A DNA stretch of 64,000 nt from Pirellulales bacterium (GCA_963733035.1 CAVTBU010000008.1:64001-128000); one strand, 5' to 3'. Shown: positions 6,174-22,987, counted from the stretch's first letter. Notes: generated by a model from the sequence alone, not told the origin. Translations and numbers: made by a program.

Positions 6174-6255
6174 GGAGGGTAAGCGAATGGCTAGCGGCGA
6201 CACTGGAAATGTCGTGCCGGGTAACCGGTTGCGGGTTCGAGTCCCGTGCCCTCCG
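6174..6255 (+). tRNA. tRNA-Ser(GGA); integration target; CCA not encoded
   Basis: Acceptor GGAGGGT/GCCCTCC plus discriminator G; anticodon arm CGACA-CTGGAAA-TGTCG; long variable arm GCCGG-GTAA-CCGGT; T-arm GCGGG-TTCGAGT-CCCGT. Confidence 0.93.
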
Positions 6256-6257
6256 CT
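6202..6257 (+). repeat. att core, left copy (3' half of tRNA-Ser from the anticodon arm)
   Basis: ACTGGAAATGTCGTGCCGGGTAACCGGTTGCGGGTTCGAGTCCCGTGCCCTCCGCT, identical to 22932-22987. Confidence 0.95.
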
Positions 6258-6308
6258 GTTTCGTAGCAATGACTTGCGTCGATGGTGGTATTGCACATTT
6301 CCGGTCGA

Positions 6309-7496
6309 TCAGGCGTGTTTTACTGCCAATTGACTGCCATTCTCGGAATGGTCGGCGATCATGAGTGAGTCCATCTTCGCCGCGGCGTCAATCTGCATAC
6401 TCGGCATGACGTGGGAGTAGGTATCCATCGTCAGGCTGATCTGTGAATGCCCTAACCGCTCTTGAACCACCTTCATGTGGACGCCCTGACTCAACAGTTG
6501 TGTGGCGTGCGTGTGCCGCAGATCGTGGAAACGGACCATACGGAGCCCTGCCCGCTTGAGTAGCGGCTTGAACTCGTCGGCGTGGAAATGACTCCGCCGC
6601 AGCGGTCCGCCGTGCTGGTTGGTGAATACGTGCTCAGAACCAGCCAAGCCAGCCGCCACGGTCGCCTTGCGATGCCCTGATAGCTTGTCGATGACCTTGG
6701 AGCCGATTACCACCAGCCGACGGCTCTTGGCGCTCTTGGGCTCGGCGAGGGCCAGCTTGCCGTCAATCTCGGTCAGTGTCCGCCTGACGGAAACCGTGCC
6801 AGCCGATAGATCGATATCGGACCACTGGAGTCCGAACAACTCGCCGATACGCAGCCCGGAGCCAATCGCCAGCCAGTACAGAGCCTCCAGGCGGTCACCA
6901 TCCGCCGCGGCCAACAGCCTACCTACCTCTGACGTGTCGAGCGGCGTGATCTCGCTTTTGGGCACCCTGGGGGGCTCTACGGCGTCACAGACGTTCCGAA
7001 CCACGAGTCCCCACTTGAGCGCCTGCTTGAGAGCACGGTGCAGCACAGCATGAGCCAGACGTCTTGGGTTCGGTCCAATCCCGTCGCGCTCCATTTCGGA
7101 GTAGAGCGCCTGGACGTGCACCGGGGTGAGCTTCTGGAGTCCCACGCCGCCGATTCGCGGGTTGATGTGATTCTTCACGATGGCCTTGTAATTGTAGAAC
7201 GTCGTAGCGCGTACGGTCATGCGGGCAACGTCGTCAAGCCACTTTCCCAGGTACTCGGCAACTGTCTTGCGGGACGGATCTACGAGAGTCCCGGTCAGCT
7301 TGGACGACTGCACGCGAGTCAGTTCATCCTGAACAGCCTTTTTCGTCTTGCCGTATACCGTCCTGCGCTTCCGCTTGCCGTCGGCACCGTAGCCGACGCT
7401 AATCATCGCACACCAACGCCCATCGGGTCGCCGATATACCGAACCTTCGCCACGCCCTCGACGCGCTCGGCGTTTACTCTTCGTTGCGTCGACCAT
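6309..7496 (-). CDS. int: Tyrosine recombinase / phage integrase
   Basis: N-terminal RGRGEGSVYRRPDGRW; catalytic R in SGLRIGE, HxxR in FHDLRHT, LGHS and DTYSH. Confidence 0.96.
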   Translation of the reverse strand: MVDATKSKRRARRGRGEGSVYRRPDGRWCAMISVGYGADGKRKRRTVYGKTKKAVQDELTRVQSSKLTGTLVDPSRKTVAEYLGKWLDDVARMTVRATTFYNYKAIVKNHINPRIGGVGLQKLTPVHVQALYSEMERDGIGPNPRRLAHAVLHRALKQALKWGLVVRNVCDAVEPPRVPKSEITPLDTSEVGRLLAAADGDRLEALYWLAIGSGLRIGELFGLQWSDIDLSAGTVSVRRTLTEIDGKLALAEPKSAKSRRLVVIGSKVIDKLSGHRKATVAAGLAGSEHVFTNQHGGPLRRSHFHADEFKPLLKRAGLRMVRFHDLRHTHATQLLSQGVHMKVVQERLGHSQISLTMDTYSHVMPSMQIDAAAKMDSLMIADHSENGSQLAVKHA

Positions 7497-7498
7497 CC

Positions 7499-7717
7499 TT
7501 ATTTCCTCCCCTTGGTTTTCACGAGTCGCAGTCCAAGAAATGCCGCCAGCTTCTCCGCGGTTCCAAGCAGAATATCTTGCTGCCCGGACATGAACCGGCT
7601 TACAACCGGCTGGGGCACGCCCGACTCTTTGGCGATTCGATAGTACGACAGTCCGCTATCGGTCACGAACTGCCGTATCTGGTCGGCCGTCATTGTGTCT
7701 ACCTGTTGCTTTACCAT
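7499..7717 (-). CDS. Small XRE/Cro-like HTH regulator, directly upstream of int
   Basis: SYYRIAKESGVPQPVVSRFMSG HTH; stop codon 2 nt from the int start. Confidence 0.85.
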   Translation of the reverse strand: MVKQQVDTMTADQIRQFVTDSGLSYYRIAKESGVPQPVVSRFMSGQQDILLGTAEKLAAFLGLRLVKTKGRK

Positions 7718-7723
7718 ACTCTC

Positions 7724-7753
7724 CAGTATATATACTGATCGCAATATGGTCAA
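7724..7753 (-). promoter_or_regulatory. Promoter of the HTH-int operon with palindromic operator
   Basis: Minus strand TTGACC-17-TATACT; perfect palindrome CAGTATATATACTG (7724-7737) overlaps the -10. Confidence 0.7.
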
Positions 7754-8136
7754 GCGTTCAGTTGTGTCAAAAATCCCGCCCGGCGCCTTTTCACTGACGC
7801 CGGACGGGTCGCTGTCGGGGCCCGTCTTCACTCGGGTCCGGACCTAGGAGTTGGCTTGTCACTGGCTCACGCCCCTCAATCGCCGCGTGGCGTTCGCCCC
7901 CTTGCGCCTCGATGATCTTGGTTCCAAGTAGCAGCGCACACGCTCGGCCAGCAGGGACGCGTCAAAGGGCCCCTAGCGGCTGCCGACCCAAGTATCGCGT
8001 GGGTGGATTTGCGCGCGTTAGGCGGCGCGTGTGGCGCTCGACGCGCAGGCGATGGCATGGTCGCACCGCGAACCACCCACCGATCCCGACGCAGCGGATC
8101 ATGTGAACACCGCCCCTTCACGTCGCGCTGGAGGCA

Positions 8137-9915
8137 TCATTCGGTCCGCGCGATCTCAATTTCGCGTCCACCATCGACACAGAAAATCCTAAAGCGCACG
8201 ATTGCCTTGTCGTGAATCGCAGTGGTCAGCTCAGCCAGCTCGCTGACAGCCTTGGCACGCTCGCGATTGATCGGCAATTCCGTCTGCATTTGGACAAACA
8301 AGGTTTTCGCGCGTTCAATCCGCTGCAGAGCAGCCGCTTTCAACGCCGCGACCTGTGGTGCCGCCATGTTATCACCATACCGAGCTACTAGTGCATTCAA
8401 GTCAGCGGTGGAATTTTTTACCTCAGCTTCTGCCACCGGTATACTGGCGACTTGCTTCTCAACCAGCGAGTTTAGCTGTCGCAGTAATGTCTGCACTCGG
8501 TCGACTGTCCACGCGTACTCCTTCCGGTCGAACGGCATCATTATTGGCTCGAACCGCACCTGTAAAATGGACTTCCCCGTACCTGACAAGGAGATTTCGA
8601 TGCCGGCCTGTGGCAGTTCATCACGAATTGCGATTCGCAACTTGGAGCCCACCTTTGCAACACGGTCGCTCGGATAGAATGCCCGGGCCGTTGCGCCTTC
8701 GATGCTCAACACTTCAACACGCAGTGAGCGCGGATCAGCTACATCGACGTGCGACAATGTAATTGGGATGGAAGTTTTCGATCGAGTCAGATCGACGGCG
8801 ATCCCTTTGAGAATCAACGTATTTTGACGGTCAACCGAGGGCTTTTGCGAGTCTTTTTTCGGCTGAACCGGCCTACCCATGTCGGGTGACAGTGGCAGCT
8901 GTGTCGGATTGCTCGGAAGAAGCTTCTCTTGGACCTCTCGCTTCAGATCCGGATGGACATCGAACTGTTCCATAAGTTCGTCTACCGCGCGGAGACCAAG
9001 TCGTGTAGCAAGTAAAGGCTTTGAGTCCTTAATTTTGATTGCCTCGCTAATAGCCATCTCGTACAGCACGTAGCGCATCCAATTCTGCTCTTGTGTTTTG
9101 GCCGCGTTCAAATAGTCTTCTGGGTTAAGTTCACCTTCGACGGTGATCGCCTTTCTGGCCTTTGCCTGCTGCTCCGGAGTGGGAACCGGGAGCTTGCCGT
9201 TCCCATTCAATCCCCTGGGTGGCCTCGCGGTGGGGACGACTGGAAGCGTTCTGCCCTTAGTCAATTCGGCAGTGGGTTGCGGCACGTTGCTTGGTACGTT
9301 GTCTTGCCTTGCTCGCGGATTTGGCCTGAGCTGTGGACTGTTTTCGCGAATGGGTTTGTTCTGCTTTTTTGGCAGACCGGCGACCTTTGTGGGGTTGGTC
9401 CCCTGCGGCCTTCCGAGGACCTTGTCAAAATCGATCAAAAACGTTGCCGTAATCACGGCAGCAATTATCGCTACACCGCCGATGATGATTGCAACACCGT
9501 GGTTGCTGCGCCGTCGACGGCGCGGTACCGCGCGTATTCGCGGTTCGACGAACGTTGCGGGTGCCTGAACCGGCGTCGTCGCGGCGACGGCCGGCAATGG
9601 CGATGCGGCAAAATGAGGTGGGGGAGTGATGTCTTCAGGCGGCGACAGCTTTCGACGCAGCTGCTGATCGTATTCCACCTTTGAGGTGGGATTCAACAAG
9701 CAGACTTTCGCGCGAGCTATCTCATTCAGGATCCGCTGCGAAAGCTCAGACTGCGGGCCAATCTTGTAGCTTTGGATGTGCGCCATCTGGCGCTCGCCGG
9801 CAGACTGTATCACTTCCCTGTCGGATTCAAAGTGCTCCAGACCAAGCAACCGATAGTGGTCAGGTGGCTGGTTTTCTGGCCGAATTCCCAGCCACTTGTA
9901 GTATGGATCGAACAC
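8137..9915 (-). CDS. Membrane-anchored protein with N-terminal J-domain-like module lacking HPD
   Basis: GTG start with GGAGG RBS; FDPYYKWLGI..QPPDHYRLLGL...LNEIARAKVCLLNPTSKVEYDQQLR; one TM helix (GVAIIIGGVAIIAAVITATFLI); C-terminal coiled coil. Confidence 0.75.
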   Translation of the reverse strand: MFDPYYKWLGIRPENQPPDHYRLLGLEHFESDREVIQSAGERQMAHIQSYKIGPQSELSQRILNEIARAKVCLLNPTSKVEYDQQLRRKLSPPEDITPPPHFAASPLPAVAATTPVQAPATFVEPRIRAVPRRRRRSNHGVAIIIGGVAIIAAVITATFLIDFDKVLGRPQGTNPTKVAGLPKKQNKPIRENSPQLRPNPRARQDNVPSNVPQPTAELTKGRTLPVVPTARPPRGLNGNGKLPVPTPEQQAKARKAITVEGELNPEDYLNAAKTQEQNWMRYVLYEMAISEAIKIKDSKPLLATRLGLRAVDELMEQFDVHPDLKREVQEKLLPSNPTQLPLSPDMGRPVQPKKDSQKPSVDRQNTLILKGIAVDLTRSKTSIPITLSHVDVADPRSLRVEVLSIEGATARAFYPSDRVAKVGSKLRIAIRDELPQAGIEISLSGTGKSILQVRFEPIMMPFDRKEYAWTVDRVQTLLRQLNSLVEKQVASIPVAEAEVKNSTADLNALVARYGDNMAAPQVAALKAAALQRIERAKTLFVQMQTELPINRERAKAVSELAELTTAIHDKAIVRFRIFCVDGGREIEIARTE

Positions 9916-9987
9916 TTTTCTGTCGCCTCCGTTTTTGCGTGCGTCTCCTCTGCCCTGCTCGCAAGCCCGGCGGCTTAGCACCTTGCC

Positions 9988-10016
9988 ATGATACGAGCGG
10001 GCTCTTAATTGATCAA
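9988..10016 (-). promoter_or_regulatory. Sigma70-type promoter of the J-like gene
   Basis: Minus strand TTGATC-17-TATCAT. Confidence 0.55.
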
Positions 10017-10059
10017 CCTGACCCGAATTGCGGTAGTGTCCTAACAGTGAGGTGGTCCC

Positions 10060-10299
10060 GTGATTGATACCTATCCGCGTCATATCTTGGAGCTGATCGC
10101 GGCCTGCCGCCAGAATCGTGGCCTGGACCCTCGCGACGTACTGGATGCAATCGACGATCCCCAGTGGGAGCGGGCTTGCCACACTAACGACTGGCGTTCT
10201 GTTGTCGTGGATTCCGTCGTCGATATATGGCCTTTTTTGGGGGTTGAGGCGAGGTTGGTGGCCTATCTAACTGCTTCTGTCGAGGTGGCGATTCAGTAA
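10060..10299 (+). CDS. Small hypothetical protein (79 aa)
   Basis: GTG preceded by GAGGTGG inside the left IR; globular-looking PQW...DWR...IW pattern; overlaps the 3' end of the convergent HEPN-like ORF. Confidence 0.5.
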   Translation: MIDTYPRHILELIAACRQNRGLDPRDVLDAIDDPQWERACHTNDWRSVVVDSVVDIWPFLGVEARLVAYLTASVEVAIQ

Positions 10300-10789
10300 T
10301 CTTTTTGGCTTGCTTTCGGATGAAATCATCCAGATATCCTACCGCCAGCTCGATGGATTGTCTCGAAGCGTGCAGGCGCTTGTAACCGTAGATTCGCTTT
10401 ACAAATTCCCGAATTGCCTGAACCTGCTGTTCAATCTCGATGTCATCCAGCGAAACGACACGCGGATGGTGCGCTGCATGATTGCGAATTAGTCTGAGCG
10501 CATCGAGCAGGTCGCACACTTCGTGAGCCAGGAGGCCAAAGGCCCGGCACATGGTTATTTTCATGCCGAACGAATAGAGCGGCGACGTAAAGGTATCTAG
10601 CAGCCTGCCTCGGAGATCTGAGTTCAGTCCTTCTCTTGCAAAAGTCTCCCGTAAAAGATCCTCCATTCGATCGTTCAATACCTCGCATCCGATTAGAGGA
10701 CATGCACGATCGGAATCAGACCACATCGCGCTGGTCGTAAGTAGCCAATCCACTAAGGATTTCTTACGTCTATTTTTCTTGCCGCTCAT
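10184..10789 (-). CDS. MltR-like HEPN-superfamily protein (putative RNase)
   Basis: SDRAC..IG...L...L..LL, PLYSFGMKI..CRAFGLL, and RxxxxH motif RNHAAH. Confidence 0.72.
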   Translation of the reverse strand: MSGKKNRRKKSLVDWLLTTSAMWSDSDRACPLIGCEVLNDRMEDLLRETFAREGLNSDLRGRLLDTFTSPLYSFGMKITMCRAFGLLAHEVCDLLDALRLIRNHAAHHPRVVSLDDIEIEQQVQAIREFVKRIYGYKRLHASRQSIELAVGYLDDFIRKQAKKITESPPRQKQLDRPPTSPQPPKKAIYRRRNPRQQNASR

Positions 10790-10871
10790 ACGTTAGCCCC
10801 TTGGGCGTGGCGTAGTGCGGTCCCTGCCTTATACGCTCACGGATTCGGTGTGCAAATCACCGCACGTCCAT

Positions 10872-11039
10872 TCAGCGGCGTTTAGCGGCCTTTAGAAGCA
10901 CCTCACGCGCCCAGGTGGACGTGTTGCCGTCTGCGGCCTTCTCAAGCTGCTTTAGCTCGGATTCGCTCAAGCGAATCTGAAAGCGTATGTCGCGTCGCTC
11001 CGCGTCGTCTTTTGGGGGTCTACCCCTTTGTGATTCCAT
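10872..11039 (-). CDS. Small ribbon-helix-helix-like DNA-binding protein (55 aa, not in the ORF track)
   Basis: MESQRGRPPKDDAERRDIRFQIRLSESELKQLEKAADGNTSTWAREVLLKAAKRR; divergent from the transposase. Confidence 0.75.
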   Translation of the reverse strand: MESQRGRPPKDDAERRDIRFQIRLSESELKQLEKAADGNTSTWAREVLLKAAKRR

Positions 11040-11045
11040 GACAGG

Positions 11046-11105
11046 ATTGTACAGACAAAAAATATTCGTGCAAGCTATTTACCGCCGATTAAATGTCTGT
11101 ACAAT
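11046..11105. promoter_or_regulatory. Inverted-repeat operator pair between the RHH and transposase genes
   Basis: ATTGTACAGACA (11046-11057) and TGTCTGTACAAT (11094-11105), perfect 12-bp IR in an AT-rich spacer. Confidence 0.65.
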
Positions 11106-11248
11106 AAATTATGTTGGGAACGGCAATTCCCAATAAAAAACCCCGACTCGGCCCTGGCAGGCTGAATCGGGGGACAAACAACCAGGCTCTCGCTAGGCTG
11201 CTGTGACAAGCCAATTCTAGCGGAAGCCGTAACCAAGGCTACCCCGCG

Positions 11249-12283
11249 ATGATGATGATTGCTTGTGCCCATGCGACGTTCCAGAAATACGGCAAAGACC
11301 GCAAGGGAAACCAGCGGTTTAAGTGCTCGCTGTGCGGCAAGCGATGGACGGAAGAACACGCCAAGCCGCTCGGCGAGATGCGCGTGCCGGTCGAAACCGC
11401 CAAACTCGCGCTCCGTCTGCTGACGGAAGGCATGAGCATCCGCGCCACGGAACGCACAACCGGCTTGCACCGAGACACGATTTGCAAACTGCTGGTGTTA
11501 TTTGGCGATGCCTGCCAGCGGTTTTTAGACGAGCGTATGCGTGGGCTCACACTGTCTCATCTGCAATTCGACGAACAGTGGACTTACGTCTACAAGAAAC
11601 AATCTCGGCTCACCACGACCGAGCGCGAGCGATCGAGCGAGCAAGGCGATATGTACTTGTGGACGTGAGTGGACCAGAAAACGAAGCTCATGCCCGCGTT
11701 CCTGATCGGCAAGCGTTCGGCCGACAATGCCCGCCGTTTTATGATGGACGTTGCGAACCGGCTGGTGTTCCCAAAGCCGCACCAGAGCGATGACCAGAGC
11801 TATACAAAGCCTGGATACCAGCCCATTACTCAAATTTCGACGGATGGCTTCCCGGCCTACCCCGAGGCCGTGGACCTGGCTTTCGGTCCCTACGTCAAGT
11901 TCGGCACGATCATAAAGGAGTACCGCAACGCGAGCATGATCTATACGCCCTCAGAAATGGTCGGTACGAAGCGGACGGGCGTTCGCGGGATAAGCGGCCG
12001 GAACCAGCGGACGATATGTACCTCGCACGTGGAGAGGTTGAACGGCACCCAGCGGCTATTTATGAAGCGTCTCAACCGGTTGACCTACTGCTTTTCCAAG
12101 AAACTACGGAACCTGGACGCGGCATTCGCCATGTTCGCGGCCTACTACAACTTTTGCTGGCAGACCCGCAAGCCGGGCAAGTCGGGGCAGAAACGGGGGA
12201 CCGCCGCGATGATGGCTGGACTGGCCGGCCACGTGTGGAGCTTCGACGAACTATTCGATGAGGCAATTGCCAAAATTGCCTGA
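11249..12283 (+). pseudogene. IS1-family transposase (Zn ribbon, HTH, DDE) interrupted by an in-frame TGA at 11666-11668
   Basis: KYGKDRKGNQRFKCSLCG, EGMSIRATERTTG, QFDEQWTYV, YLWT*VDQKTKL, STDG, TSHVERLN; both ORFs are in the same frame. Confidence 0.88.
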
Positions 12284-12331
12284 CCCCCCGTTATGGTTGA
12301 AGCCGGACGCACATTCGAGTAGTCTGCTGGC

Positions 12332-12919
12332 ATGATTTGTCGAATCGCACGTATATCGGCCGTTTTGGTATATTTCGCATTATCTGCGGACGCGCCTGCG
12401 CAAGACATAATTCAATTTACAAATCCACCCGGAAATGGCACCGTTCAACTGCAAATATGGCCGATGTCGGTCGCAGGACCGCAAGCCAATTTCATCCTAA
12501 AGCCCGGTCAAAGCATGCCGGTTCAGCTAGTATCGCAGGGAAAATTCAACATCCGCAGCCTGCAATGGAGCCCAGACGGGAACACCTGCACTCGCTGGCT
12601 CGTACAGAATTTGGATCTCCATGCGATCGCAGATGGATCAGTCCTATCGATCAAGCTTTATGCATCTCGGGAAGCGATGTGGGAGCGATTTGATGGGCAA
12701 TACATGCAGGTGGCAGTGCCTCCAGGAGATTCAAAATGCATCTGGGAATTCACGACAATACCGACGGCGGTAGAATCACCTCCCCTGCTGGAGCCGATAG
12801 AAACAGAGCCTGCGCCTACCGGTGTGCAGCAGTACGCAACTGTTTCCATGCCAGCTGGATGCCCGGTAATTGGGCATGATCCGCCGAGAGAACCAAAAAT
12901 CCCAAAACGTAAAAAGTAG
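12332..12919 (+). CDS. Hypothetical secreted protein (transposon passenger)
   Basis: Signal-peptide-like N-terminus, beta-rich core, basic Pro-rich tail. Confidence 0.65.
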   Translation: MICRIARISAVLVYFALSADAPAQDIIQFTNPPGNGTVQLQIWPMSVAGPQANFILKPGQSMPVQLVSQGKFNIRSLQWSPDGNTCTRWLVQNLDLHAIADGSVLSIKLYASREAMWERFDGQYMQVAVPPGDSKCIWEFTTIPTAVESPPLLEPIETEPAPTGVQQYATVSMPAGCPVIGHDPPREPKIPKRKK

Positions 12920-12934
12920 CAGGAAGGGATTGAT

Positions 12935-13543
12935 ATGGGGTCCGACGCAATTTGGGAAAAGCTGATGTCTCTCAGCATCGTTGCCGGCATGAATCAGCGG
13001 TATTCGCAGTACATGCTGACTAAGGCGGAGTGGTTCAGTAGTGCGATAGACGTTGCGGTTGTTGTCTTTACTATGCTCACCTTGGTTTTCGGGGTGGCTG
13101 CCTATTACAAGCCCGGGAATCTGATGCCCTTATTGCCATATTGGTGGAGCGGAACTGGATGGGGCGTATGGCGTGTTAAGTATAGTCGAATGGCTATCGC
13201 GATGTCGTTGTTCGCTGCGCTCAGTGGTGTGGTGCTCGTTGTCGTGCCAACAAACAAGTCAGTTCATTTCTATAGCACGATGCTTCAAAGCTGGAGCGAC
13301 CTGAGGCAGGACATAGATTCCGCAATTGTCGATTCCGACTCGCACACATTGATTTCCAATGAGCACGGTGAAATGTACCTGGAAAGGCGATATCGCGACC
13401 TGCTGGCAAAAAAGAATGCTCTAAATGCAAGGGAGCCATCTCCCGACCAAGAGCTTCTTGAGCATTTCTTAACGCTGGAAGAGCGGTCGAGGTCGGCCCA
13501 AGATGAAATAGCCGACCAGAAACCAGTCGCACTAAGGGAATAG
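12935..13543 (+). CDS. SLATT-like two-TM protein (transposon passenger)
   Basis: N-terminal helix with NQRY, two hydrophobic helices, then helical WSDLRQDID...RYRDL...LNAREP region. Confidence 0.6.
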   Translation: MGSDAIWEKLMSLSIVAGMNQRYSQYMLTKAEWFSSAIDVAVVVFTMLTLVFGVAAYYKPGNLMPLLPYWWSGTGWGVWRVKYSRMAIAMSLFAALSGVVLVVVPTNKSVHFYSTMLQSWSDLRQDIDSAIVDSDSHTLISNEHGEMYLERRYRDLLAKKNALNAREPSPDQELLEHFLTLEERSRSAQDEIADQKPVALRE

Positions 13544-13567
13544 ACAGAGGCAATTCAGAACCACAAC

Positions 13568-13594
13568 AGCCCCGGCCCCCTGCCGGGGCTTTTT
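13568..13594 (+). terminator. Intrinsic terminator after the SLATT-like gene
   Basis: AGCCCCGGC-CCCCT-GCCGGGGCT followed by TTTT. Confidence 0.8.
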
Positions 13595-13616
13595 CATGCG
13601 CGATAGAATGGTGCCT

Positions 13617-13751
13617 ATGAGCGAGATTCATTTCACCTATCACGCGTCTTCGACCTGGCTGCCGTGGGCTGGGGTTGCGTTTGGGCTGGCCATGATCATC
13701 GGCTGCTCCGTAGCACTCTGGCGTGGCAGACGCCGACCACCTCAGTCCTAG
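13617..13751 (+). CDS. Putative 44-aa single-TM peptide ending inside the right IR
   Basis: MSEIHFTYHASSTWLPWAGVAFGLAMIIGCSVALWRGRRRPPQS; TAGAAT 7 nt upstream of the ATG. Confidence 0.4.
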   Translation: MSEIHFTYHASSTWLPWAGVAFGLAMIIGCSVALWRGRRRPPQS

Positions 13752-13802
13752 GACACTACCCGAATTGCATGGGGTTTTGGATTCTGATAGCCTTTTTCTG
13801 CC

Positions 13803-15785: not shown

Positions 15786-16508
15786 TTACCTCTGTGGGTC
15801 AACTTCGATGTCGACGATTTCAGACAGCAGGACGGCTTGCCCGCGGCGGTCGTAGCACGTGTTTCCCTTGAGTGATGGCTGGCCGGCAAACACGTAGAAG
15901 ATCGCAGTGCGCAGAGCATCGGGCCGATCGGAAGGGCCGCGAAACTTCACAATACAAGGCTTGGACGCGTCCATGAGCTCGGCCATTAAGTCGATGCCGT
16001 AACACTCAGAACGGCAGATGTCCTCGACAAGCTCGGGAAACTCCAGGTAGGAGCGACTTACTTCCCGACTGAACACTGCATCGCGAACAAGCATCCCGAA
16101 TGGACCGGAATAACCGGCGGAAGACTCTCGCATTTTTTTCCAATGATGCCCGTTGTTGCCGGCGCCATGTTCGACCCTCTCGCGAAACTCGGCCTTTTGG
16201 TCTGCCACCAAGCGGTTGCCGATAAGACGGTCTACCATCTGCCAAATTCGCTCAGTCATTGCCTCGCGCGGCAGGATTCCCTCACGCCGAAAGGATTCCG
16301 GGGCGATCGTCCGGGTAGCATGGAACCAGTAGATCGCATCGAATGAGCAGTCACGACCGACCACCGCTTCCCAAAGCGCTTCCGGCCCATCCTCAAACGA
16401 CTTGCCGACTCGTTGCAGCCGATGCGTTAGTTCGTAATGCTCGATGCCAATGATCGAGCAAAGCGACTGAGTCGCGGACGTCAGATTTGAGCAGTCGAGG
16501 GTTTTCAC
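15786..16508 (-). CDS. Hypothetical protein, possibly ADP-ribosyltransferase-like fold
   Basis: YWFHATRT..ESFRREGILP; last gene of the terS-terL run. Confidence 0.65.
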   Translation of the reverse strand: MKTLDCSNLTSATQSLCSIIGIEHYELTHRLQRVGKSFEDGPEALWEAVVGRDCSFDAIYWFHATRTIAPESFRREGILPREAMTERIWQMVDRLIGNRLVADQKAEFRERVEHGAGNNGHHWKKMRESSAGYSGPFGMLVRDAVFSREVSRSYLEFPELVEDICRSECYGIDLMAELMDASKPCIVKFRGPSDRPDALRTAIFYVFAGQPSLKGNTCYDRRGQAVLLSEIVDIEVDPQR

Positions 16509-16514
16509 GGTTGG

Positions 16515-17192
16515 TCATCCTGCTTGTGGCTGCGAGTTGTACTTCTCCCGAAGGCCCAGGGACACAATGGCGAACGTCGTCAGGCAGTACGTGGCCAGAG
16601 CCCGGTTGGCCGCGATCGCGATGAAATGTTTTAGCCCTACCAATTCGTCCCCGGTAAGGAAGTGCGCGTCTAGCAAGCCCACGGCCAGGCGGTAAGCCGC
16701 GCCAGCTCGATACGCGTGAGTCTGCGGGTCGTCGCCATGCGGGTACAACTCCGCGCGGTGTTGGCCGTCTTCCGCCAATTGCACGAAATTGGCGGTCGCA
16801 TTGGTGGGTTTCGTGCAGCCGTCGCATTGGAACCTTTCGCCCTTTTCATCGAACCTTACGCGGCCGGCCCCTTCATGAACAAAATCGGCGAAAGCACAAG
16901 GGCCGGCGGGTGACGGCAGAAGACCCGCGTTGTTTGCGACTGTCAGAGCGATTCTCGCGGCCGTTTCCTCACGTGTGACGGGCATCTTGACCAGGACCGA
17001 CGGGGCCGCAGGCGTGAATTGCACGCAGGATTCGCCGACCTGATAGGTGCTTTCCAGACGGGGACGCCGCCGCAAGTCCTTCATGCCGACTTCGACGATC
17101 TCCATGAAGGGGAGCATCGCGAGTGCGGTCTTCGCAGGAATATAGGTTTCAAGTGACCCGAACGCTAAGTAGGAATTGGTTTGCGGGAGCAT
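16515..17192 (-). CDS. Hypothetical protein downstream of terL
   Basis: ATG with AAGGA upstream; 225 aa; CDGC pair; no recognised family. Confidence 0.6.
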   Translation of the reverse strand: MLPQTNSYLAFGSLETYIPAKTALAMLPFMEIVEVGMKDLRRRPRLESTYQVGESCVQFTPAAPSVLVKMPVTREETAARIALTVANNAGLLPSPAGPCAFADFVHEGAGRVRFDEKGERFQCDGCTKPTNATANFVQLAEDGQHRAELYPHGDDPQTHAYRAGAAYRLAVGLLDAHFLTGDELVGLKHFIAIAANRALATYCLTTFAIVSLGLREKYNSQPQAG

Positions 17193-17275
17193 CTGTATCC
17201 ATCCTTGAGAGAAAGTTGAGGTTAAACGGAAACCGGGGCGACCGACGCAAGTTTCCCTGATGTTTGTGTGAGGAA

Positions 17276-18724
17276 TCACCAGCCATACATTTCATTTGGC
17301 AACATCAACGGCCGGGGTGCGGGACACTGAATAACCTCTTCGATGTGCATGACGGATGGTCCGCACCGCATCGCGTCCGCGGCAATGGGGATTGCGATCG
17401 ACAACGCTATCGCTCGGTCCGCGTGGCCCAAGATCTTGTCGCTGGGGGCCGTTAGCTTATAGCCGTAGCTCTTCTCGACAATTTGCAGCCGGCACAGATC
17501 AGTAATCAGGTCGGGCTCGCGATACAGTTCGACGGTTCGGCCACGAAACGCTTGCAGCAGCGTGCTTGCCATTGTGTCGAGATGCTTGCCGATGAAGGGA
17601 ACTTCAAGCATGTTCACGCCGTCACGTCGTAGCGACTGCGACATAAAGCTGGCTTGGTGAGGATCGTAGCCGATCGTCAATCCTCGAAACCGACGGGACG
17701 CCTCAAGCACGCAGTCCTTGACTAGCAACAGATCGACTTCGCCGCCGGGCTCAGGCGCCGAACTTTGGCAGTCGGCAAGATACATTCGCTCCGTGTCGCT
17801 ATCGACGGCCAGGACGACTAGGGCCGCGTGATCGCGCTTCACCCCAAGATCCAGGCCGGCCACATAACCGAATCGACCAGCGTAGTCTTCGATTGGACCG
17901 TCAAGCGTGATTGCGGCCTCGATATCTGCGACGTCCAGGCAATCGCCGCCGGAACTCCAGACCCCTCCGAACAGGCGATTGAAACGACTGGCGGTGCTTC
18001 GACGTCGGGCATCCTCGATGCCGGCAGGATCGTGATAGGGCGCAGGGCCCGTAATCGTTCGGAATTGCCAGCGTTCGGGCTGAGACTGCACTGCTTCGCG
18101 GAGTCGATATTGCCACGAGTCGACGTTGCCCGCGTTCATGGCAAGCATGACAAGTCCGTGGGGAACCTTTTCAGAGTTGTCCAACAAATTGAACACAAAT
18201 TCTTCTGAAACGATGCACGTCAGTTCATCGACGAAAAGCGCGTCGGGTAGCGCGCCTTGGCTTCCGGCTTCGTCGGCGGGAATGATTTCGGCGAGCGCCT
18301 CAGTGTCGGAGCACACGATTTGCCACTTGTCGACACGGACCCGGTTCGCAAGCCATGGCATCGCCTGGGTGATCTTGACGGCCGCCATCCGTACTTCAGC
18401 CGCTTGGTCTTTGTCCGCGGCCGCAATTTGAATCCGCAGCATGCGGCGTGAAAACGCGATCATCCACAGCACGGTCAAAGCGATCATCCACGATTTGGCG
18501 TAACCTTTGGTTGCCTCCAACCAGAACCGACGAATTGGGGCGGGTCGTCCCTGCATCGCGGCAATGGCGGCGGGCTCAAGCGCAACCAGCATGTCGCGCT
18601 GGGCGGGCACTTTGACGTCGCCGAAACGGCGCAGACCGGTAGCGGTGTGCACGGGCATGTCGTCCGCAAAATCCGCCAGGCTGCCGCGGTAGTGAGCAAT
18701 CTGATCCGGGGTCAGGTTTCGCAT
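17276..18724 (-). CDS. terL: Terminase large subunit
   Basis: Walker A-like ATKGYAKS, AAADKDQA, Walker B LFVDE; RNase H-like nuclease acidic motifs AGLDLG, GYDPHQ, HADRAIA; start could extend to 18895. Confidence 0.85.
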   Translation of the reverse strand: MRNLTPDQIAHYRGSLADFADDMPVHTATGLRRFGDVKVPAQRDMLVALEPAAIAAMQGRPAPIRRFWLEATKGYAKSWMIALTVLWMIAFSRRMLRIQIAAADKDQAAEVRMAAVKITQAMPWLANRVRVDKWQIVCSDTEALAEIIPADEAGSQGALPDALFVDELTCIVSEEFVFNLLDNSEKVPHGLVMLAMNAGNVDSWQYRLREAVQSQPERWQFRTITGPAPYHDPAGIEDARRRSTASRFNRLFGGVWSSGGDCLDVADIEAAITLDGPIEDYAGRFGYVAGLDLGVKRDHAALVVLAVDSDTERMYLADCQSSAPEPGGEVDLLLVKDCVLEASRRFRGLTIGYDPHQASFMSQSLRRDGVNMLEVPFIGKHLDTMASTLLQAFRGRTVELYREPDLITDLCRLQIVEKSYGYKLTAPSDKILGHADRAIALSIAIPIAADAMRCGPSVMHIEEVIQCPAPRPLMLPNEMYGW

Positions 18725-18791
18725 GGCTTGTAAACGCCGGGCAACCGCCACGCCTGGAGGGAGACGCAGCAGCGCCCAGCGCGCAAAAGTT

Positions 18792-19346
18792 TTAGTTGGG
18801 CTGGTGTGTCTCGGGTGACTGCGAATTGCCGCTAGGGCCGATTTGCTGGCCTCCAGGCTGCTTGCCGTCAGAGGTTGAGCTTTCATGCAATCCATCGCCG
18901 CGTTGCATCCAGACGGCGTCTGTGGGCAGCGCCCACGGGTCGACCGCTTCGCCGTCGGTGTCGAGTCCTAACCGTCGAATCGCCTTGTCGCGGGCATCGC
19001 ACGCCGCGGCCATCGTCGCCCAAAGGGCTTGCTGATCTGCCAGCGATGCATCCTTTCCCCTGTCTCGAAACGCTCGGGCGGCGTACAAGTAGCGCAACTC
19101 TGCACGCGTAGCCCCGTTGATAACTACTGCATGGGATGCGCCCACATGGCCGTGCAACTCGCAAACGGCATCTTCGAGCCCCCGTCGAAAGCGATTGACG
19201 GCCCCACGGACCCCCGGCATCCACTTGGGAACACCGCCGATCGTGAGGGCCGAGCGTAGACCGTGCAACATTCGATTGACGTTGCCCCGCGGTGCACCGC
19301 TGCGGTTCGGCTTGGAAGGCTCGTTTGGCAGTACGTTGGCAGTCAC
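18792..19346 (-). CDS. Putative terminase small subunit
   Basis: GAPRGNVNRMLHG motif typical of TerS-like N-termini; immediately upstream of terL. Confidence 0.6.
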   Translation of the reverse strand: MTANVLPNEPSKPNRSGAPRGNVNRMLHGLRSALTIGGVPKWMPGVRGAVNRFRRGLEDAVCELHGHVGASHAVVINGATRAELRYLYAARAFRDRGKDASLADQQALWATMAAACDARDKAIRRLGLDTDGEAVDPWALPTDAVWMQRGDGLHESSTSDGKQPGGQQIGPSGNSQSPETHQPN

Positions 19347-19396
19347 GTTTCACTAACCCTTTGCTAGTAGTAACTTACGGGGAGGCACAATCTACG

Positions 19397-19666
19397 CTAT
19401 GTCGTGCCGGCGCTCGCCCCTCCGCATCGGCAGCTTTCCTTGAGCCGTTCCAGATCCGCAGGGTCGATCCGCCTCGCAGATCCGAACCGGTAATAGGCCA
19501 ACTCGCCCCGGTCCATCAACTGGTACAGTGTCGTGCGCCCAAGTCCCAACAGGCTGGCAGCCTCTTTGACGGTCAGCAGCCGCTCGGATTGAACGTGCCG
19601 CGCCGTCAACTCGGGCAGCCCTGGATGGGGTTTGCAGGTGTCCCTGCGTGTGTGTGTGCTGCTCAT
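19397..19666 (-). CDS. Excisionase / HTH_17 DNA-binding protein
   Basis: LLTVKEAASLLGLGRTTLYQLMDRGEL...FGSARRIDPADL. Confidence 0.88.
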   Translation of the reverse strand: MSSTHTRRDTCKPHPGLPELTARHVQSERLLTVKEAASLLGLGRTTLYQLMDRGELAYYRFGSARRIDPADLERLKESCRCGGASAGTT

Positions 19667-19690
19667 TTCCTGCCCCGCAATTTCGTCAGT

Positions 19691-19843
19691 GCATCGGTGC
19701 GGTCGATCTTGTATCGTTGCGACCTCTTTTCAAACGCATCGGTACGTACGGTACGGGGCCTCTTATAAGGCCCCCGTACTGTACCGATGCGACTGCACCC
19801 GTACGGCTGTGTACCGTTGCGGTGTACCGTTGCGTACCGATGC
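19691..19843. repeat. Iteron-like array, putative replication origin of the element
   Basis: GTACCG(A/T)TGC at 19781, 19811, 19824 and 19834; inverted copies at 19736 and 19691; variant at 19711; arranged around the palindrome CTTATAAG. Confidence 0.75.
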
Positions 19844-19845
19844 GG

Positions 19846-21393
19846 TTAATTTTCATCGTCCACGACCCTGTAACCTTCGTAGCGGCGGCTGTTGGCCTTC
19901 GCGATTTCACACGGCTCCAGGTGGCCGGCGTCAAGCGCGGCGGCGAGCGCGGCGTCAAACGCTTGACCGTTGCGGCCGGTACGGGCGCGAATGTCTGTTT
20001 TGGTGCCTTGGTGGCCCGGCAGCTTGTGGCAGGCTTCGACAACCAGTTGCACGTCGCGCTCGAGCCCCTCGGCGCGCTTCTGGTCGGCCCGCTGTTCTTT
20101 GGCGGCCTCGGCCATGTCCGCGATGGCTGACGGCTCGAGGACCAATACGTGCCAGGTGCGGTTGCTGCCGGTGCCTTCGCAGATCTGCAAGCCGTGTAAG
20201 CCGCTGTGGCCAGCGCTGCCGCCGGTGACCATCCACAAGTGGTGCTCGCCGGTACCGGGCTCGTAGTCGCGTCTGCGGCTCAAGAGAAGCCATTGCCGGG
20301 CCCATTCGCTGGTACCGCTCCAAGAGACTTGCGTTAGCTCGGGCGGTGCGTGACGATTGTCGATGCCGCTTTTGCGAATGTGGTGGACCACGACCAGCGT
20401 GATGCCGATCTCTTCGCACATGCCTGACAGTTGACGTAGCTGCCGGCCGACTGCCATGAGGTTGCCGGCGTCGGCTGCGGCCAGCATGAAATACAGTGGG
20501 TCCACGATGGCAATTTCGATTCGTTCGCGCACCAGTGCACGGCGCAGGGCGGCCAGTTCGTCGGCGGCGTCGAGCCTGGGCACGACTGTGGTCCAAAACA
20601 AATTGCCAAGCTGGGCCAGCGTGGTGCCTTGGGCTGACGCGATGCGTTCCCCTGTTTCCCGCAGCGTCGAGCCGCCGCTTTCAGCGTTTGCGATCAGCAC
20701 GCGATAGGGTCGGGCGACTGAAAACCGGCCGAGAAACGGCTCGCCGCTGGCCAGGGCGATGCCCATCGCGACGCAGATCGTGCTTTTCATGCCCTTCAAC
20801 TGGGCTGCCACAACCATGGGCTGCCGTTCGGCCAGGATGCCTTCGATTGCGTACGTCGCTACATCATTTGTCGCGGCGAACGCAGGGCTGGGTGTCACGT
20901 CGATGCGAAACCCTTGGCTGTCGGCGGCGATGCCGTCCAGGTTGTCGCGGTGGTGGGCGTATGCTTCAGCGAATGGCTTCACTCGCAGATCTCGCAGAAA
21001 CGCCACGCCACTAAGATATCCCTCGCGTTTTGCTCGACAGTCGCGTGCCACGCGCAAGTAGTACGACGTGTTCGACGGCAGCGCATCGCCTGTGATGATC
21101 TCCGCCAGTTTCGCGGCGCCGCCGACGGCTTTGAGTCGGTCGGTGCGGGTCAATTCGCGGTGCAGGTTCGTCAGGTCAACGGGCTGCAGGTTCTCGCGTA
21201 GGGCCGCCATCGCCCCGAAGATTTCCGCATGCGGTTCGTGGTGAAAATCGGCGGCTTCGATTTGATGCTCGTCGATCACCCTAGGCAGCAGTAGACATGA
21301 TCGCAAGAGCATCTGCTCGCAGTGCTCGTCGCTGGGCATGCCCGCATCGAGAATCTCGCCATTTGTCCGGGCGCCGGCGCCGTTTTGCTTCAT
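19846..21393 (-). CDS. Replicative helicase: DnaB N-terminal-like domain fused to AAA_25 (RepA-like SF4) ATPase
   Basis: PSDEHCEQMLL..DFHHEPHAEIF..L..VGGAAKLAEI; KGMKST, NAESG, IVDPLY, VVVHHIRK. Confidence 0.85.
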   Translation of the reverse strand: MKQNGAGARTNGEILDAGMPSDEHCEQMLLRSCLLLPRVIDEHQIEAADFHHEPHAEIFGAMAALRENLQPVDLTNLHRELTRTDRLKAVGGAAKLAEIITGDALPSNTSYYLRVARDCRAKREGYLSGVAFLRDLRVKPFAEAYAHHRDNLDGIAADSQGFRIDVTPSPAFAATNDVATYAIEGILAERQPMVVAAQLKGMKSTICVAMGIALASGEPFLGRFSVARPYRVLIANAESGGSTLRETGERIASAQGTTLAQLGNLFWTTVVPRLDAADELAALRRALVRERIEIAIVDPLYFMLAAADAGNLMAVGRQLRQLSGMCEEIGITLVVVHHIRKSGIDNRHAPPELTQVSWSGTSEWARQWLLLSRRRDYEPGTGEHHLWMVTGGSAGHSGLHGLQICEGTGSNRTWHVLVLEPSAIADMAEAAKEQRADQKRAEGLERDVQLVVEACHKLPGHQGTKTDIRARTGRNGQAFDAALAAALDAGHLEPCEIAKANSRRYEGYRVVDDEN

Positions 21394-21590
21394 GGCTGGG
21401 AATCCTTTCCGTCAGCTGTCGTCAATCCGACAAGGCGACAGCCGCACGTTCGCAAGAGCACTTTCGCAGCATGACGCAGCGAACGAAGCCGTTCGGACGG
21501 TGTGTCACCTCGAACGGCGAGCGTCGCCTCGAACCGCTCGGCCAGCGGGCGGCGCTCGACTTTCATCTGATGGCTGGGTAGGCTGTTCAT
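21390..21590 (-). CDS. Small hypothetical protein, translationally coupled to the helicase
   Basis: ATGA overlap with the helicase start; RLRSLRHAAKVLLRTCGCR. Confidence 0.6.
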   Translation of the reverse strand: MNSLPSHQMKVERRPLAERFEATLAVRGDTPSERLRSLRHAAKVLLRTCGCRLVGLTTADGKDSQP

Positions 21591-21644
21591 GTTCGATCCA
21601 TCGGCGGCCGGTTTCCTTTTGCCAGCGGGGGCCGGCCGCTATTT

Positions 21645-21830
21645 TTAGCTTTTCCGTGCCGGCCGACGATTGGTGGCTGCCGACGTGAACCTTACAGTCA
21701 CGCCGAGCCTACGCAGGTTTCTCACGGCGTCGGCTGCCACTTCAAAATCACCCCTCGACCTTGCTGCCTCCAGCACTGCAAACCAAGCGGTTGGCGAATC
21801 TGTCGGGTCGTCTTTTTCGTGCCGCGCCAT
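21645..21830 (-). CDS. Small hypothetical protein
   Basis: AAGGAG RBS; SPTAWFAVLEAARSRGDFEVAADAVRNLRRLGVTVRF. Confidence 0.7.
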   Translation of the reverse strand: MARHEKDDPTDSPTAWFAVLEAARSRGDFEVAADAVRNLRRLGVTVRFTSAATNRRPARKS

Positions 21831-21953
21831 CGCGATTTTCTCCTTCTAGATAATCACCACTGGATTAGCCGGCTAATGCCAATGGGAAAACAAGAAACCC
21901 GCGAAAACACGCGGGTTTGAGTAGAAAAAGAATATTCAGCGTTAGCCGACCGG

Positions 21954-22661
21954 CTAGTCCGCCGGAGCGACGGCCTCAAGGGTGCCGTCGCTGGACTTCA
22001 TACCACGTGGAATATTGGCGTTCATTGCCGCGCGTGCAATCAGATACCGCCGCCATGTCTTTTTGTACATGGTTGTGCGACAGACTTGGGCTTCATCCAT
22101 GATTTTGGCGTCAGACCAATCGGGATGTGCCGCAAGCAGCCCTAACGCCGTCGCTAGTTTTGTCATTCCCGATCGCCCAGCGGTTCGCTGTTCGCTGTCT
22201 GGCGACAGCCTCTTACGCATCCAGTCGAGTAGATCCTTCGCGGCGCGCTCGAGGTCTGGCAGTCGCGCCAGTCGTCGGCCGGACATGAGCCGAAGATCTG
22301 GAGGGCCGATAGTTGGGCACTTGGCCGTCGTGAGGCGGGGAAAATCACGCTGCCTCAAGTATTCGAGAACACGGTACGCGTTGCGTAGTTGTAACGCTGC
22401 GAACTCACTGGCGGTGTTTGGACGGTATTTTTCCGCGTTATCCCGAAACCCAACAATCATTGCGACCATCGTCTCAAACCAGGCTAGAACATCCTCCAGG
22501 GTATCGAGTGGCATGTCGTACCACCGTCCTTCCCAGCCGACAAGAAAGCGCGTAGCCGAGGGCGCATCGGCTAACGTCAGAATCGGCTGCGTCTTCGCCT
22601 CTGGCGACTTTCGGGTCCGTTTCTTCTTGCTGGTGGCGCGGCCATTCTTGTCCTTGGCCAT
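21954..22661 (-). CDS. Protein with C-terminal HTH (putative element regulator)
   Basis: GGAGG RBS before MAKDK; ALGLLAAHPDWSDAKIMDEAQVCRTTMYK. Confidence 0.7.
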   Translation of the reverse strand: MAKDKNGRATSKKKRTRKSPEAKTQPILTLADAPSATRFLVGWEGRWYDMPLDTLEDVLAWFETMVAMIVGFRDNAEKYRPNTASEFAALQLRNAYRVLEYLRQRDFPRLTTAKCPTIGPPDLRLMSGRRLARLPDLERAAKDLLDWMRKRLSPDSEQRTAGRSGMTKLATALGLLAAHPDWSDAKIMDEAQVCRTTMYKKTWRRYLIARAAMNANIPRGMKSSDGTLEAVAPAD

Positions 22662-22931
22662 GAGAACCTCCATCTGTCGCGGGCGAGCGCCGGGCCGAAG
22701 GCCACCAGATGGAGAGAGTGGCCACTCGGCCGGGCGCTCGTCGGGGATCAATCCGACGACCCGCAGTAACTTAGTCCGCCAGATTCTACCAACCCGGATC
22801 TGTTTTGACTGCCAATATACTGCCAAACCCACGCATGCACCGGAAATCCGCGGACACGTGCGGACGACGCAAGACATTGATCTGACAAGCTTTGAACAAC
22901 TGCGAACAATCGCGAACAACGCTCCAACGCA

Positions 22932-22987
22932 ACTGGAAATGTCGTGCCGGGTAACCGGTTGCGGGTTCGAGTCCCGTGCCCTCCGCT
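22932..22987 (+). repeat. att core, right copy (displaced 3' half of tRNA-Ser)
   Basis: Identical to 6202-6257; its end runs into the hairpin CGCTTC-GGG-GAAGCG. Confidence 0.95.

Follow-up and report, generated by a model that had tools for sequence, protein, structure and literature searches.

An island in tRNA-Ser(GGA) of a Pirellulales bacterium carries an HK97-type terminase and no recognisable head genes: a candidate terminase-only phage satellite

How might a chromosomal island that encodes a phage DNA-packaging motor, and no recognisable head for that motor to fill, pass from cell to cell? The question is raised by a 64,000-nt stretch of the genome of a Pirellulales bacterium (GCA_963733035.1 CAVTBU010000008.1:64001-128000; hereafter 'the window'), in which an earlier note had described a complete, att-bounded element of 16,730 bp, about 13.0 kb without a nested insertion sequence (IS), that encodes a small and a large terminase subunit (TerS and TerL) and no recognisable capsid or portal. 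We hold, with moderate confidence, that this island is a helper-dependent phage satellite with a complete HK97-type terminase and without head, tail or lysis genes. We put forward more tentatively, as a possibility that we stop short of calling probable, that it is a working member of a terminase-only class of satellites, widespread in Planctomycetota and repeatedly derived from capsid-forming satellites, whose motor would dock on a foreign portal. In what follows, G000 denotes the window's own genome (92%-complete); C5, C6, C7 and C9 denote its contigs; and L-numbers denote loci of the terminase family.

The limits of the island are two 56-nt direct repeats that are 100% identical and spaced 16,730 bp apart, the left one forming the 3' part of tRNA-Ser(GGA) (Table 1). 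The genes beyond the repeats are chromosomal (Rho and a PMT_2 glycosyltransferase on the left; HlyD and AcrB on the right), no phage gene lies in the window outside the repeats, and G+C content is ~0.61 outside the island and 0.52-0.57 in its central part. Perfect repeats at a tRNA, together with ordinary chromosomal flanks, indicate a genuine insertion at the tRNA. The nested IS, with its ends mapped, is flanked by an 8 bp target duplication (CGAATTGC, read from the sequence, at 10024-10031 and 13761-13768), and its removal leaves a backbone of 16,730 - 3,729 - 8 = 12,993 bp, so that the extent given in the earlier note, with and without the IS, is confirmed. The IS sits in cargo, between a gene for a J-like protein of 681 aa and a gene for an Hsp70; it breaks no backbone gene, and all backbone open reading frames (ORFs) are intact, those for integrase (Int), excisionase (Xis), helicase, TerS-like protein and TerL being open. 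We conclude that the island is a genuine, complete att-bounded insertion in the 3' end of tRNA-Ser(GGA).

The large terminase is the best-defined component of the packaging module. A protein search with the window's TerL returned 77 proteins, including the window's own; the others are at most 59% identical to it and derive mostly from metagenome-assembled genomes (MAGs) of Planctomycetota/Pirellulales. The window's TerL taken alone falls below the PF03354 threshold of E<=0.01, and 37 of the 77 proteins listed carry PF03354. A family profile built from 34 TerL sequences matches one solved structure, the HK97 large terminase 6Z6D (E 2.8e-8). In that profile alignment, the Lys of a KGxxK(S/D) motif lies over GKT of 6Z6D and an hhhDE motif lies over ILDE, as expected for the ATPase, and GLDLG lies over AGLDLS in the nuclease, in a second and weak stretch. 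Residues K77 and E167 of the ATPase and D292, D354 and D436 of the nuclease are invariant in the 34 sequences, the window's included, and the window's TerL has 27 of the 27 invariant columns of the alignment; a further match, to phrog_2699, is weak and covers residues 391-445. With the ATPase and nuclease motifs aligned and the 27 invariant columns kept, we conclude that TerL is, as predicted from its sequence, a catalytically intact HK97-type large terminase.

The partner of TerL is a 184-aa ORF lying directly upstream of it, as do the relatives of this ORF in many loci. The family has an N-terminal GNxNxxRHGL motif, a three-helix core and a C-terminal D-x-W-A-x-L-D motif. A local hidden Markov model (HMM) of the family matches the window as well as 25 of 40 loci (14 lay outside the set from which the HMM was built), and shows that the family accompanies TerL also in three relatives that have head genes (L048, L054 and L057). 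An AlphaFold2 (AF2) model made with 17 sequences has a mean predicted local distance difference test score (pLDDT) of 73, exceeding 90 in the three-helix core, and small terminases (COG3747, 'terminase small subunit' and P27) occupy ranks 1, 2 and 11 of its BFVD matches, with probabilities of 0.97-1.0 and weak E values of 0.14-0.41; small terminases of the P27/COG3747 type are, we take it, the kind used by HK97-like phages. Seven members of the family gave no Pfam match at E<=1, the best PDB profile match has E 0.85, and no PHROG or NCBIfam family matches. Co-folding of the TerS-like protein and TerL with alignments gave a score of 0.00, which speaks neither for nor against binding. Thus, of the terminase pair that had been claimed, TerL stands, by its phrog_9 match and by the family profile's match to 6Z6D, and TerS is a weak assignment, suggested by position, co-inheritance with TerL and a faint fold signal in place of family membership.

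Scans for protein families covered 19 ORFs of the element with Pfam and PHROGs, 18 of those ORFs with NCBIfam, and 12 ORFs with PADLOC. No capsid, portal, protease, connector, tail or lysis family is matched in the 19 ORFs scanned with Pfam and PHROGs or in the 18 scanned with NCBIfam; the absence of a recognisable capsid or portal, as first described, is thereby upheld. Searches with tblastn using the capsid, portal and protease proteins of the family found nothing in the island at E<0.1. Comparison by hhalign of 33 unassigned ORFs (7 from the window and 26 from relatives) with family profiles for portal, capsid, capsid fragment, protease and a protein of ~155 aa (p155, described below) gave probabilities that were all <8%, and for the window's ORFs those against the capsid, portal, protease and p155 profiles were P<1%. 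Every island ORF of at least 300 aa has been assigned except for an ORF of 321 aa at the far end, behind a terminator-like site, and the island therefore holds no portal-sized candidate. General Pfam and PHROG scans, which used no dedicated profiles for these functions, also gave no match to Psu/Sid, P4 alpha primase or P2-type cos functions.

Relatives of the packaging module were gathered by pattern scans seeded with an alignment of eight TerL sequences; scans of genome contigs and viral contigs with the single TerL protein had found nothing. The pattern scans yielded 22 genome loci, 4 IMG/VR loci and 10 metagenome loci, with TerL 32-48% identical. In a sample of 401 genomes of the phylum, G000 among them, TerL finds a match at E<=1e-10 in 21, and identity exceeds 36% in no genome other than G000. 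Similar islands at tRNAs in other Planctomycetota, for which the earlier note had proposed a search, do exist: six further members are att-bounded (L029, 10,915 bp, tRNA-Arg; L039, 10,861 bp, tRNA-Thr; L040, 10,076 bp, tRNA-Thr; L042, 17,260 bp, tRNA-Phe; L048, 12,831 bp, tRNA-Lys; and L043, 9,315 bp, tRNA-Gln, with frameshifts in TerL and primase), so that the seven att-bounded members, the window's included, span 9.3-17.3 kb, far below phage size. All-against-all clustering identifies the TerS-like protein and TerL as the only conserved core. Integrases vary between tyrosine and serine types, and replication modules vary among AAA_25 helicases, Prim-Pol/D5, DUF3854 and DnaB. Two Schlesneria MAG contigs, L029 and L030, have TerL proteins 94% identical and a gene of ~155 aa in common in backbones that are otherwise different: a tyrosine integrase, a DUF3854 primase and the standard TerS in one, versus a serine recombinase, a resolvase, an AAA_25 helicase and a variant TerS, which keeps only the C-terminal motif, in the other. 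It looks as if the packaging module had been exchanged between elements. The ~155-aa protein, p155, follows TerL in nine loci (C9, L029, L030, L035, L039, L040, L045, L058 and L061) and is absent from the window; it has a FRNGAQSNG...PP.DP motif and a coiled-coil tail, with no Pfam, PHROG or NCBIfam match and no HNH motif, and in its subclade it may be an adaptor or an interference factor.

Head genes were counted in those loci of the family where TerL has 3 kb or more of downstream sequence, 16 in all: the window, C9, L029, L030, L032, L036, L039, L040, L042, L043, L048, L054, L055, L057, L058 and L062, of which L062 was examined by local family HMMs only and L055 and L058 by PHROGs only; L056 was omitted as a duplicate of L057, and L059 and L060 as distant (<=30% identity). 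No head gene was detected in 11 of the 16 loci, two hold remnants, and three hold an intact capsid and/or portal. L048 (TerL 32% identical) has, all within 12.8 kb, TerS, TerL, a 479-aa protease-capsid fusion (PF05065), a portal (PF04860, 5.6e-36) and an HNH protein; L057 (34%) has Neck1, a head-tail adaptor, TerL, capsid, portal, a head-morphogenesis protein and Int; and L054 (38%) has TerS, TerL, capsid, portal and a serine integrase. In a further locus, L065 (42%), a capsid gene directly follows TerL. In L039, a protease is the sole remnant of the head genes. The C9 island of the same genome (C9:212713-225284, equivalent to L003:4713-17284; TerL 37% identical) is flanked by two large serine recombinases, contains an internal resolvase, and carries a DUF2213/phrog_760 protease on one strand and, on the other, a capsid's C-terminal fragment (PF25209, 5.4e-18), as would be seen after an inversion through a protease-capsid fusion gene.

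In a maximum-likelihood TerL tree of 27 rows with midpoint root, the head-bearing loci L054 and L048 lie at the base of the main clade, inside which L057 falls on weaker support; the window groups with the head-less locus L032 (support 95/90), and the head-less state appears on several branches. Syntenic relatives with portal and capsid genes, which the earlier note had regarded as a sign of a decayed prophage or a capsid-forming island, are thus found (L048, L054, L057 and L065), beside a head-less majority. Relatives that bear capsid and portal, and remnants of such genes, indicate that terminase-only elements are not a separate invention and stand at the reduced extreme of a lineage that forms capsids; their most likely origin is capsid-forming satellites that lost the head genes.

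Selection on TerL was assessed from dN/dS (Nei-Gojobori). All seven unsaturated pairs have values of 0.045-0.126 (two further pairs are saturated), these being pairs of relatives and not of the window's own lineage, whose closest TerL homologs (59% and 55% identical) are available as proteins only. The value for L029 versus L030, both head-less, is 0.126. Low values that include a head-less pair indicate that TerL is maintained without head genes, and we conclude, from these comparisons, that purifying selection keeps TerL in head-less elements.

If the head was lost, does the terminase still package DNA, or is the island an immobile remnant of a capsid-forming satellite or small prophage-like element, no longer packaging, with TerS and TerL intact as the loss is recent? 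We judge a remnant of this kind unlikely, in a balance that has weight on both sides. The head-bearing relatives and the apparent stages of decay (the split protease and capsid of C9, the lone protease of L039, the frameshifts of L043) speak for it; the recurrence of the head-less state on several branches and the constraint on TerL in L029/L030 and the other pairs speak against it. An IS has landed in the island, which also favours decay, but it lies in an intergenic region of the cargo, the att repeats are perfect, and the backbone genes are open. In the window, the position after TerL is taken by an ORFan of 254 aa and a cargo gene of 240 aa, neither of which has a counterpart in any relative, and the same would be expected of a decaying element in which a deletion had been followed by replacement. 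Taken together, selection, recurrence and an intact backbone argue against a remnant for the family, and less strongly so for this copy. It is far less probable that the island is a capsid-forming element whose capsid and/or portal is too divergent for HMMs. Unassigned backbone ORFs that could hide such proteins exist (254 aa, 321 aa and two small ones), and the one of 254 aa occupies the place that head genes have after TerL in L048, L054 and L057; but among ORFs of at least 300 aa only that of 321 aa is unassigned, the hhalign and tblastn searches were negative, and the 240-aa ORF has a confidently modelled alpha/beta fold that is not that of a capsid. The possibility, named at the outset, that an ORF without assignment might prove to be a capsid protein is accordingly removed for the 240-aa ORF and persists for the 254-aa ORFan, even at P<1%. 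Improbable as well, if less so than a hidden head, is a terminase kept mainly as an anti-phage weapon, one that cuts or mis-packages phage DNA or titrates portal in an island that is chiefly defensive. Satellites commonly disturb helper packaging through terminase components, as the accessible text of PMC11417361 and PMC10085698 has it, and the cargo includes possible defence-type genes (a weak ADP-ribosyltransferase/DarT-like fold and the Hsp70 and J-like pair); yet PADLOC recognises no defence family in the 12 ORFs scanned, apart from two weak HTH matches, and the tight linkage of TerS-TerL to int, xis and origin, seen in all att-bounded members, is more in keeping with self-packaging. Interference and self-transfer could go together.

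Several observations weigh against reading the island as a working, self-packaging satellite. No HNH endonuclease is matched among the island's ORFs by Pfam, PHROGs or NCBIfam, and Kala et al. are said to have found in 2014 that HK97-type terminases normally need one. The window's TerL is on a long branch (1.19 changes per column). Several head-less relatives have large unassigned ORFs downstream of TerL (among them 300, 588 and 569 aa in L042; 388 and 629 aa in L032; 259 and 201 aa in L029), which could be very divergent head proteins, and the 254-aa ORFan beside the window's TerL, shorter than most capsid proteins, is still a capsid candidate: it matches only itself among 1.84 billion representatives, has no Pfam, PHROG, PADLOC or NCBIfam match, and has no usable Atlas match. 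Nor does G000 reveal a resident helper prophage. It has no match to PF04860, PF05065, PF05133, PF04984 or PF10145, nor to PF06074, for which the control also gave none; PF03354 and PF25209 match only the C9 island, apart from a weak PF25209 match at C6:462080; PF03237 has one sub-threshold match; and no portal, capsid, sheath or tape-measure family is found elsewhere in G000 besides the C9 capsid fragment. As for reads across the attP junction, which the earlier note had proposed as a check, public runs provided one DNA run of low coverage (a soil metagenome; 9% of sampled words) and no RNA run, and the 18 short, mostly identical contigs of the DNA run contain no joints; this run may come from the sample in which the sequence originated.

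According to the hypothesis that the island is a helper-dependent satellite, an XRE-type regulator would keep it silent, and infection by a helper phage would derepress a long minus-strand operon; Int and Xis would excise the island, and the helicase would replicate it from an iteron cluster. TerS would then recognise a site on the island, and the island's TerL would cut island DNA and pump it into helper procapsids, with portal, tail and lysis functions supplied by the helper. Since G000 has no structural genes of a resident prophage, the particles would have to come from an incoming phage. That the island's own motor docks on a helper procapsid is a step that we purely infer. The region between TerL and int would hold accessory genes, namely those for the Hsp70, the J-like protein, the ADP-ribosyltransferase-like protein and the ORFan.

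Table 1. Features of the island and its target site in the window, in order of position, with examples of the p155 gene in relatives.
Feature	Position	Strand	Evidence or remark
tRNA-Ser(GGA), integration target, 3' part supplied by attL	6174..6256	+	ARAGORN; sole tRNA in window
attL, 56-bp direct repeat, 3' part of tRNA-Ser(GGA)	6202..6257	.	identical to 22932-22987
Tyrosine integrase, 395 aa	6309..7496	-	PF00589 1.2e-27, PF14659 3.9e-13, phrog_1 1e-82
XRE-type helix-turn-helix (HTH) regulator, candidate repressor	7499..7831	-	PF01381 4e-7 (HTH_3)
Cargo, 681-aa J-like/membrane protein	8137..10182	-	N-terminus J-domain-like by eye; no Pfam, PHROG or PADLOC match
Nested IS1-family insertion sequence, 3,729 bp	10032..13760	.	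32-nt terminal inverted repeats (84% complementary); NF033558
IS passenger ORFs, three	10184-10789; 12332-12919; 12935-13543	-; +; +	inside the nested IS
Cargo, Hsp70/DnaK-family protein, 629 aa	13803..15692	+	PF00012 6.8e-123; below NCBIfam DnaK cut-offs
Cargo, 240-aa protein, unnamed family of diverse bacteria	15786..16508	-	31 homologs beyond itself
ORFan, 254 aa (225 aa from called start), abutting TerL stop codon	16515..17279	-	coding-like GC3
Large terminase TerL, HK97 type, 539-aa ORF (482 aa from gene caller's start)	17276..18895	-	phrog_9 3e-18, phrog_2 1.5e-9
TerS-like small partner of TerL, 184 aa	18792..19346	-	position directly upstream of TerL, co-occurrence, weak fold match
Tandem ACTGCCAA box pair just inside terS start codon	19323..19345	.	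inverted repeat I2; motif scan
Excisionase/AlpA-like HTH_17 protein, 89 aa	19397..19666	-	PF12728 1.6e-14, TIGR01764 5e-15, phrog_66 1.8e-11
Iteron cluster and GC-rich palindrome, putative replication origin adjoining helicase gene	19711..19844	.	motif scan, sequence
Replication helicase, DnaB_N + AAA_25, 515 aa	19846..21393	-	PF13481 1.8e-19, PF00772 6.9e-16
Two small ORFs, 66 and 61 aa	21390..21830	-	no Pfam/PHROG match
321-aa ORF (237 aa from internal Met), then terminator-like hairpin	21954..22919	-	no family match
attR, 56-bp direct repeat, displaced tRNA 3' part	22932..22987	.	identical to attL
p155 in L039	L039:10163-10630		
p155 in L040	L040:11528-11998		
p155 in the C9 island	L003:13829-14311		

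The gene order first described for the minus strand (two small ORFs, helicase, iterons, excisionase, TerS-like protein, TerL, two ORFs, HTH regulator and integrase) holds with the exception of its first entry: the 321-aa ORF, which had been labelled an HTH regulator, finds no support for that label in Pfam, PHROGs or NCBIfam, and has no match in PADLOC either. G+C at third codon positions (GC3) is coding-like in all listed ORFs except for one of 81 aa at 7876-8121. A consensus scan places terminator-like hairpins after the 321-aa ORF (at 21918-21895), after the 240-aa ORF and before the HTH-int pair, a pattern match that suggests three transcription units in the island. The true start of the XRE regulator probably lies downstream of a terminator-like hairpin (7808-7775) and a promoter-like site (7770-7743) that fall within the ORF as listed. 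The putative origin contains six copies of the iteron GTACCGWTGCG at 19711-19844, five exact and one with one mismatch; the whole window has 8 matches to this sequence versus 2.8 expected, and 8 was reached in 0 of 100 shuffles.

Tandem pairs of the ACTGCCAA box, with the boxes of each pair 11 bp apart, occur not only at the start of terS but also ~65 bp inside attL (6318-6341) and ~105 bp inside attR (22806-22828). The pairs at 19323-19345 and 22806-22828, which together form inverted repeat I2, were considered as the ends of a second IS; this was rejected, since the same tandem boxes adjoin attL, where sites for a protein fit better than IS ends. The boxes may be arm-type sites for the integrase or operators for a regulator. 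The 8-mer is over-represented in the window, outside the element as well (13 matches versus 1.5 expected).

The transposase of the nested IS is encoded by two plus-strand ORFs (11249-11668 and 11669-12283; IS1-family NF033558, 1.4e-17), and one of the three passenger ORFs has weak DUF4145/HEPN-like matches (E 0.003-0.005). A related IS lies at C5:1180312-1184099, with transposase DNA 82% identical and a second short match ~3.7 kb away; the passenger region has no match there. Elsewhere in G000, an island-like region at C7:729813-739339 encodes an integrase and an excisionase that match those of the window's element at 59% and 42% identity, respectively, and lies near sequence 80% identical to the tRNA-Ser region. 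Beyond attR, the AcrB-type RND transporter of the window comprises two adjacent ORFs (24674-26899 and 26913-28274) that cover profile positions 8-484 and 636-1019 of 1021, as a broken gene or a two-part form. Of 20 genomes sampled from a neighbouring family of genomes, f4, 16 encode a distant homolog of TerL (25-30% identical); at one such locus, L060 (G270:C1:413001-433000), the homolog stands beside a portal (phrog_21) and a ParB-like gene. The f4 locus may be conserved and prophage-like, or may resemble a gene transfer agent.

Two of the cargo genes, for the Hsp70 and the 681-aa J-like protein, went unmentioned in the first description. The Hsp70 has four further paralogs in G000. Residues 81-180 of the 681-aa protein also have paralogs there, one of them beside an Hsp70 paralog at C5:2121873-2123793, and an Hsp70 and J-like gene pair, divergent in the island with the IS between, is thus seen again on contig C5. 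The native start of the 681-aa protein is probably further downstream, the first ~50 codons of the ORF running into the IS. The 240-aa protein has conserved WFHATR and PEIVED motifs, and its AF2 model (pLDDT 89.7; alpha/beta fold) identifies it, as far as a predicted structure can, as a non-capsid accessory gene product. The model has no Foldseek match in PDB at E<=0.001; its best VIA match has Z 5.3, and ADP-ribosyltransferase folds recur at Z 3.6-5.3 (an Rhs toxin, DarT four times and classical ADP-ribosyltransferase toxins), values of a middling size that may reflect merely a common structural arrangement. A weak Atlas lead agrees with the likeness. An ADP-ribosyltransferase/DarT-like protein, and with it a possible toxin or defence gene, is a lead only.

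How does the island compare with known systems? HK97, whose terminase is the sole solved structure matched by the TerL family profile, is a full phage, and its terminase reportedly works with an HNH protein; the island is without head genes and HNH. Temperate prophages typically have genomes >30 kb with capsid, portal, tail and lysis modules, and differ from the island, which has a backbone of 13.0 kb and no structural or lysis match. Among satellites, phage-inducible chromosomal islands that form capsids (cf-PICIs) are alike, as far as the accessible text of their descriptions goes, in being small att islands with an integrase, an AlpA/Xis-type HTH protein, a replication module and an HK97-type TerS and TerL (bioRxiv 10.1101/2022.09.08.507074; PMC10085698, PMC10690885). 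The family itself has a cf-PICI-like set in L048, L054 and L057, that is, TerS, TerL, a protease-capsid fusion, portal, and HNH or connectors, with no tail genes. The difference is that the window's island and 10 other family loci are without capsid, protease, portal, connector and HNH, the parts that define cf-PICIs in the portions of those reports available; connectors are seen in L057 and HNH in L048, and neither is matched in the window's island. Classical PICIs and SaPIs, according to the accessible part of PMC10085698, are alike in having an integrase at one end, a regulator, a replication protein and origin, a small terminase (a TerS-like protein in the island) and accessory genes in ~10-17 kb, without structural or lysis genes. 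They differ, by the same partial account, in that a TerS or Rpp of their own redirects the helper's TerL and they encode no TerL, where the window's island has a complete, conserved one. No gene for capsid-size redirection is recognised in the window's island.

The same division appears in the satellite literature, within the text accessible in each source: PICIs encode TerS and not TerL, and in cf-PICIs and Streptomyces satellites the genes for TerS and TerL come with those for capsid, portal and connectors (PMC10085698, PMC10690885); marine VEIMEs (mobile elements, integrative and virion-encapsidated) have small terminases, the large terminase being presumed by the authors to come from the helper (PMC9618062); and EPIPs have TerS, adaptors and tape measure (PMC12822802). 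The proposition that a full terminase without a head fits no known class of satellite thus holds for PICIs and cf-PICIs, neither of whose definitions, as the available text of PMC10085698 gives them, covers the island; for P4-like elements, the general Pfam and PHROG scans gave no match to the functions named above. In the literature, supplements aside, we came across no account of a satellite that has both terminase subunits but lacks head genes. We regard the satellite reading as plausible; what would be new in it, among phage satellites, is a terminase-only element derived from capsid-forming ones, with a putative mechanism.

The packaging strategies known for satellites are to borrow the helper's TerL, by means of their own TerS, Rpp or a cos site, or to build a whole head, as cf-PICIs and Streptomyces satellites do. 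If the reading proposed here is true, the island would represent a third strategy: a whole motor without a head. To our knowledge, piracy by motor swapping has been demonstrated for no satellite. The finding raises the question of how specific TerL is for its portal, and whether a foreign terminase can use another phage's procapsid; if the terminase serves interference only, it would be a new kind of packaging-directed defence. Very few phages are known from Planctomycetota, and the family would give the first satellite candidates for the phylum. It also forms a natural series, from capsid-forming to terminase-only elements, that is useful for studying how satellites shrink.

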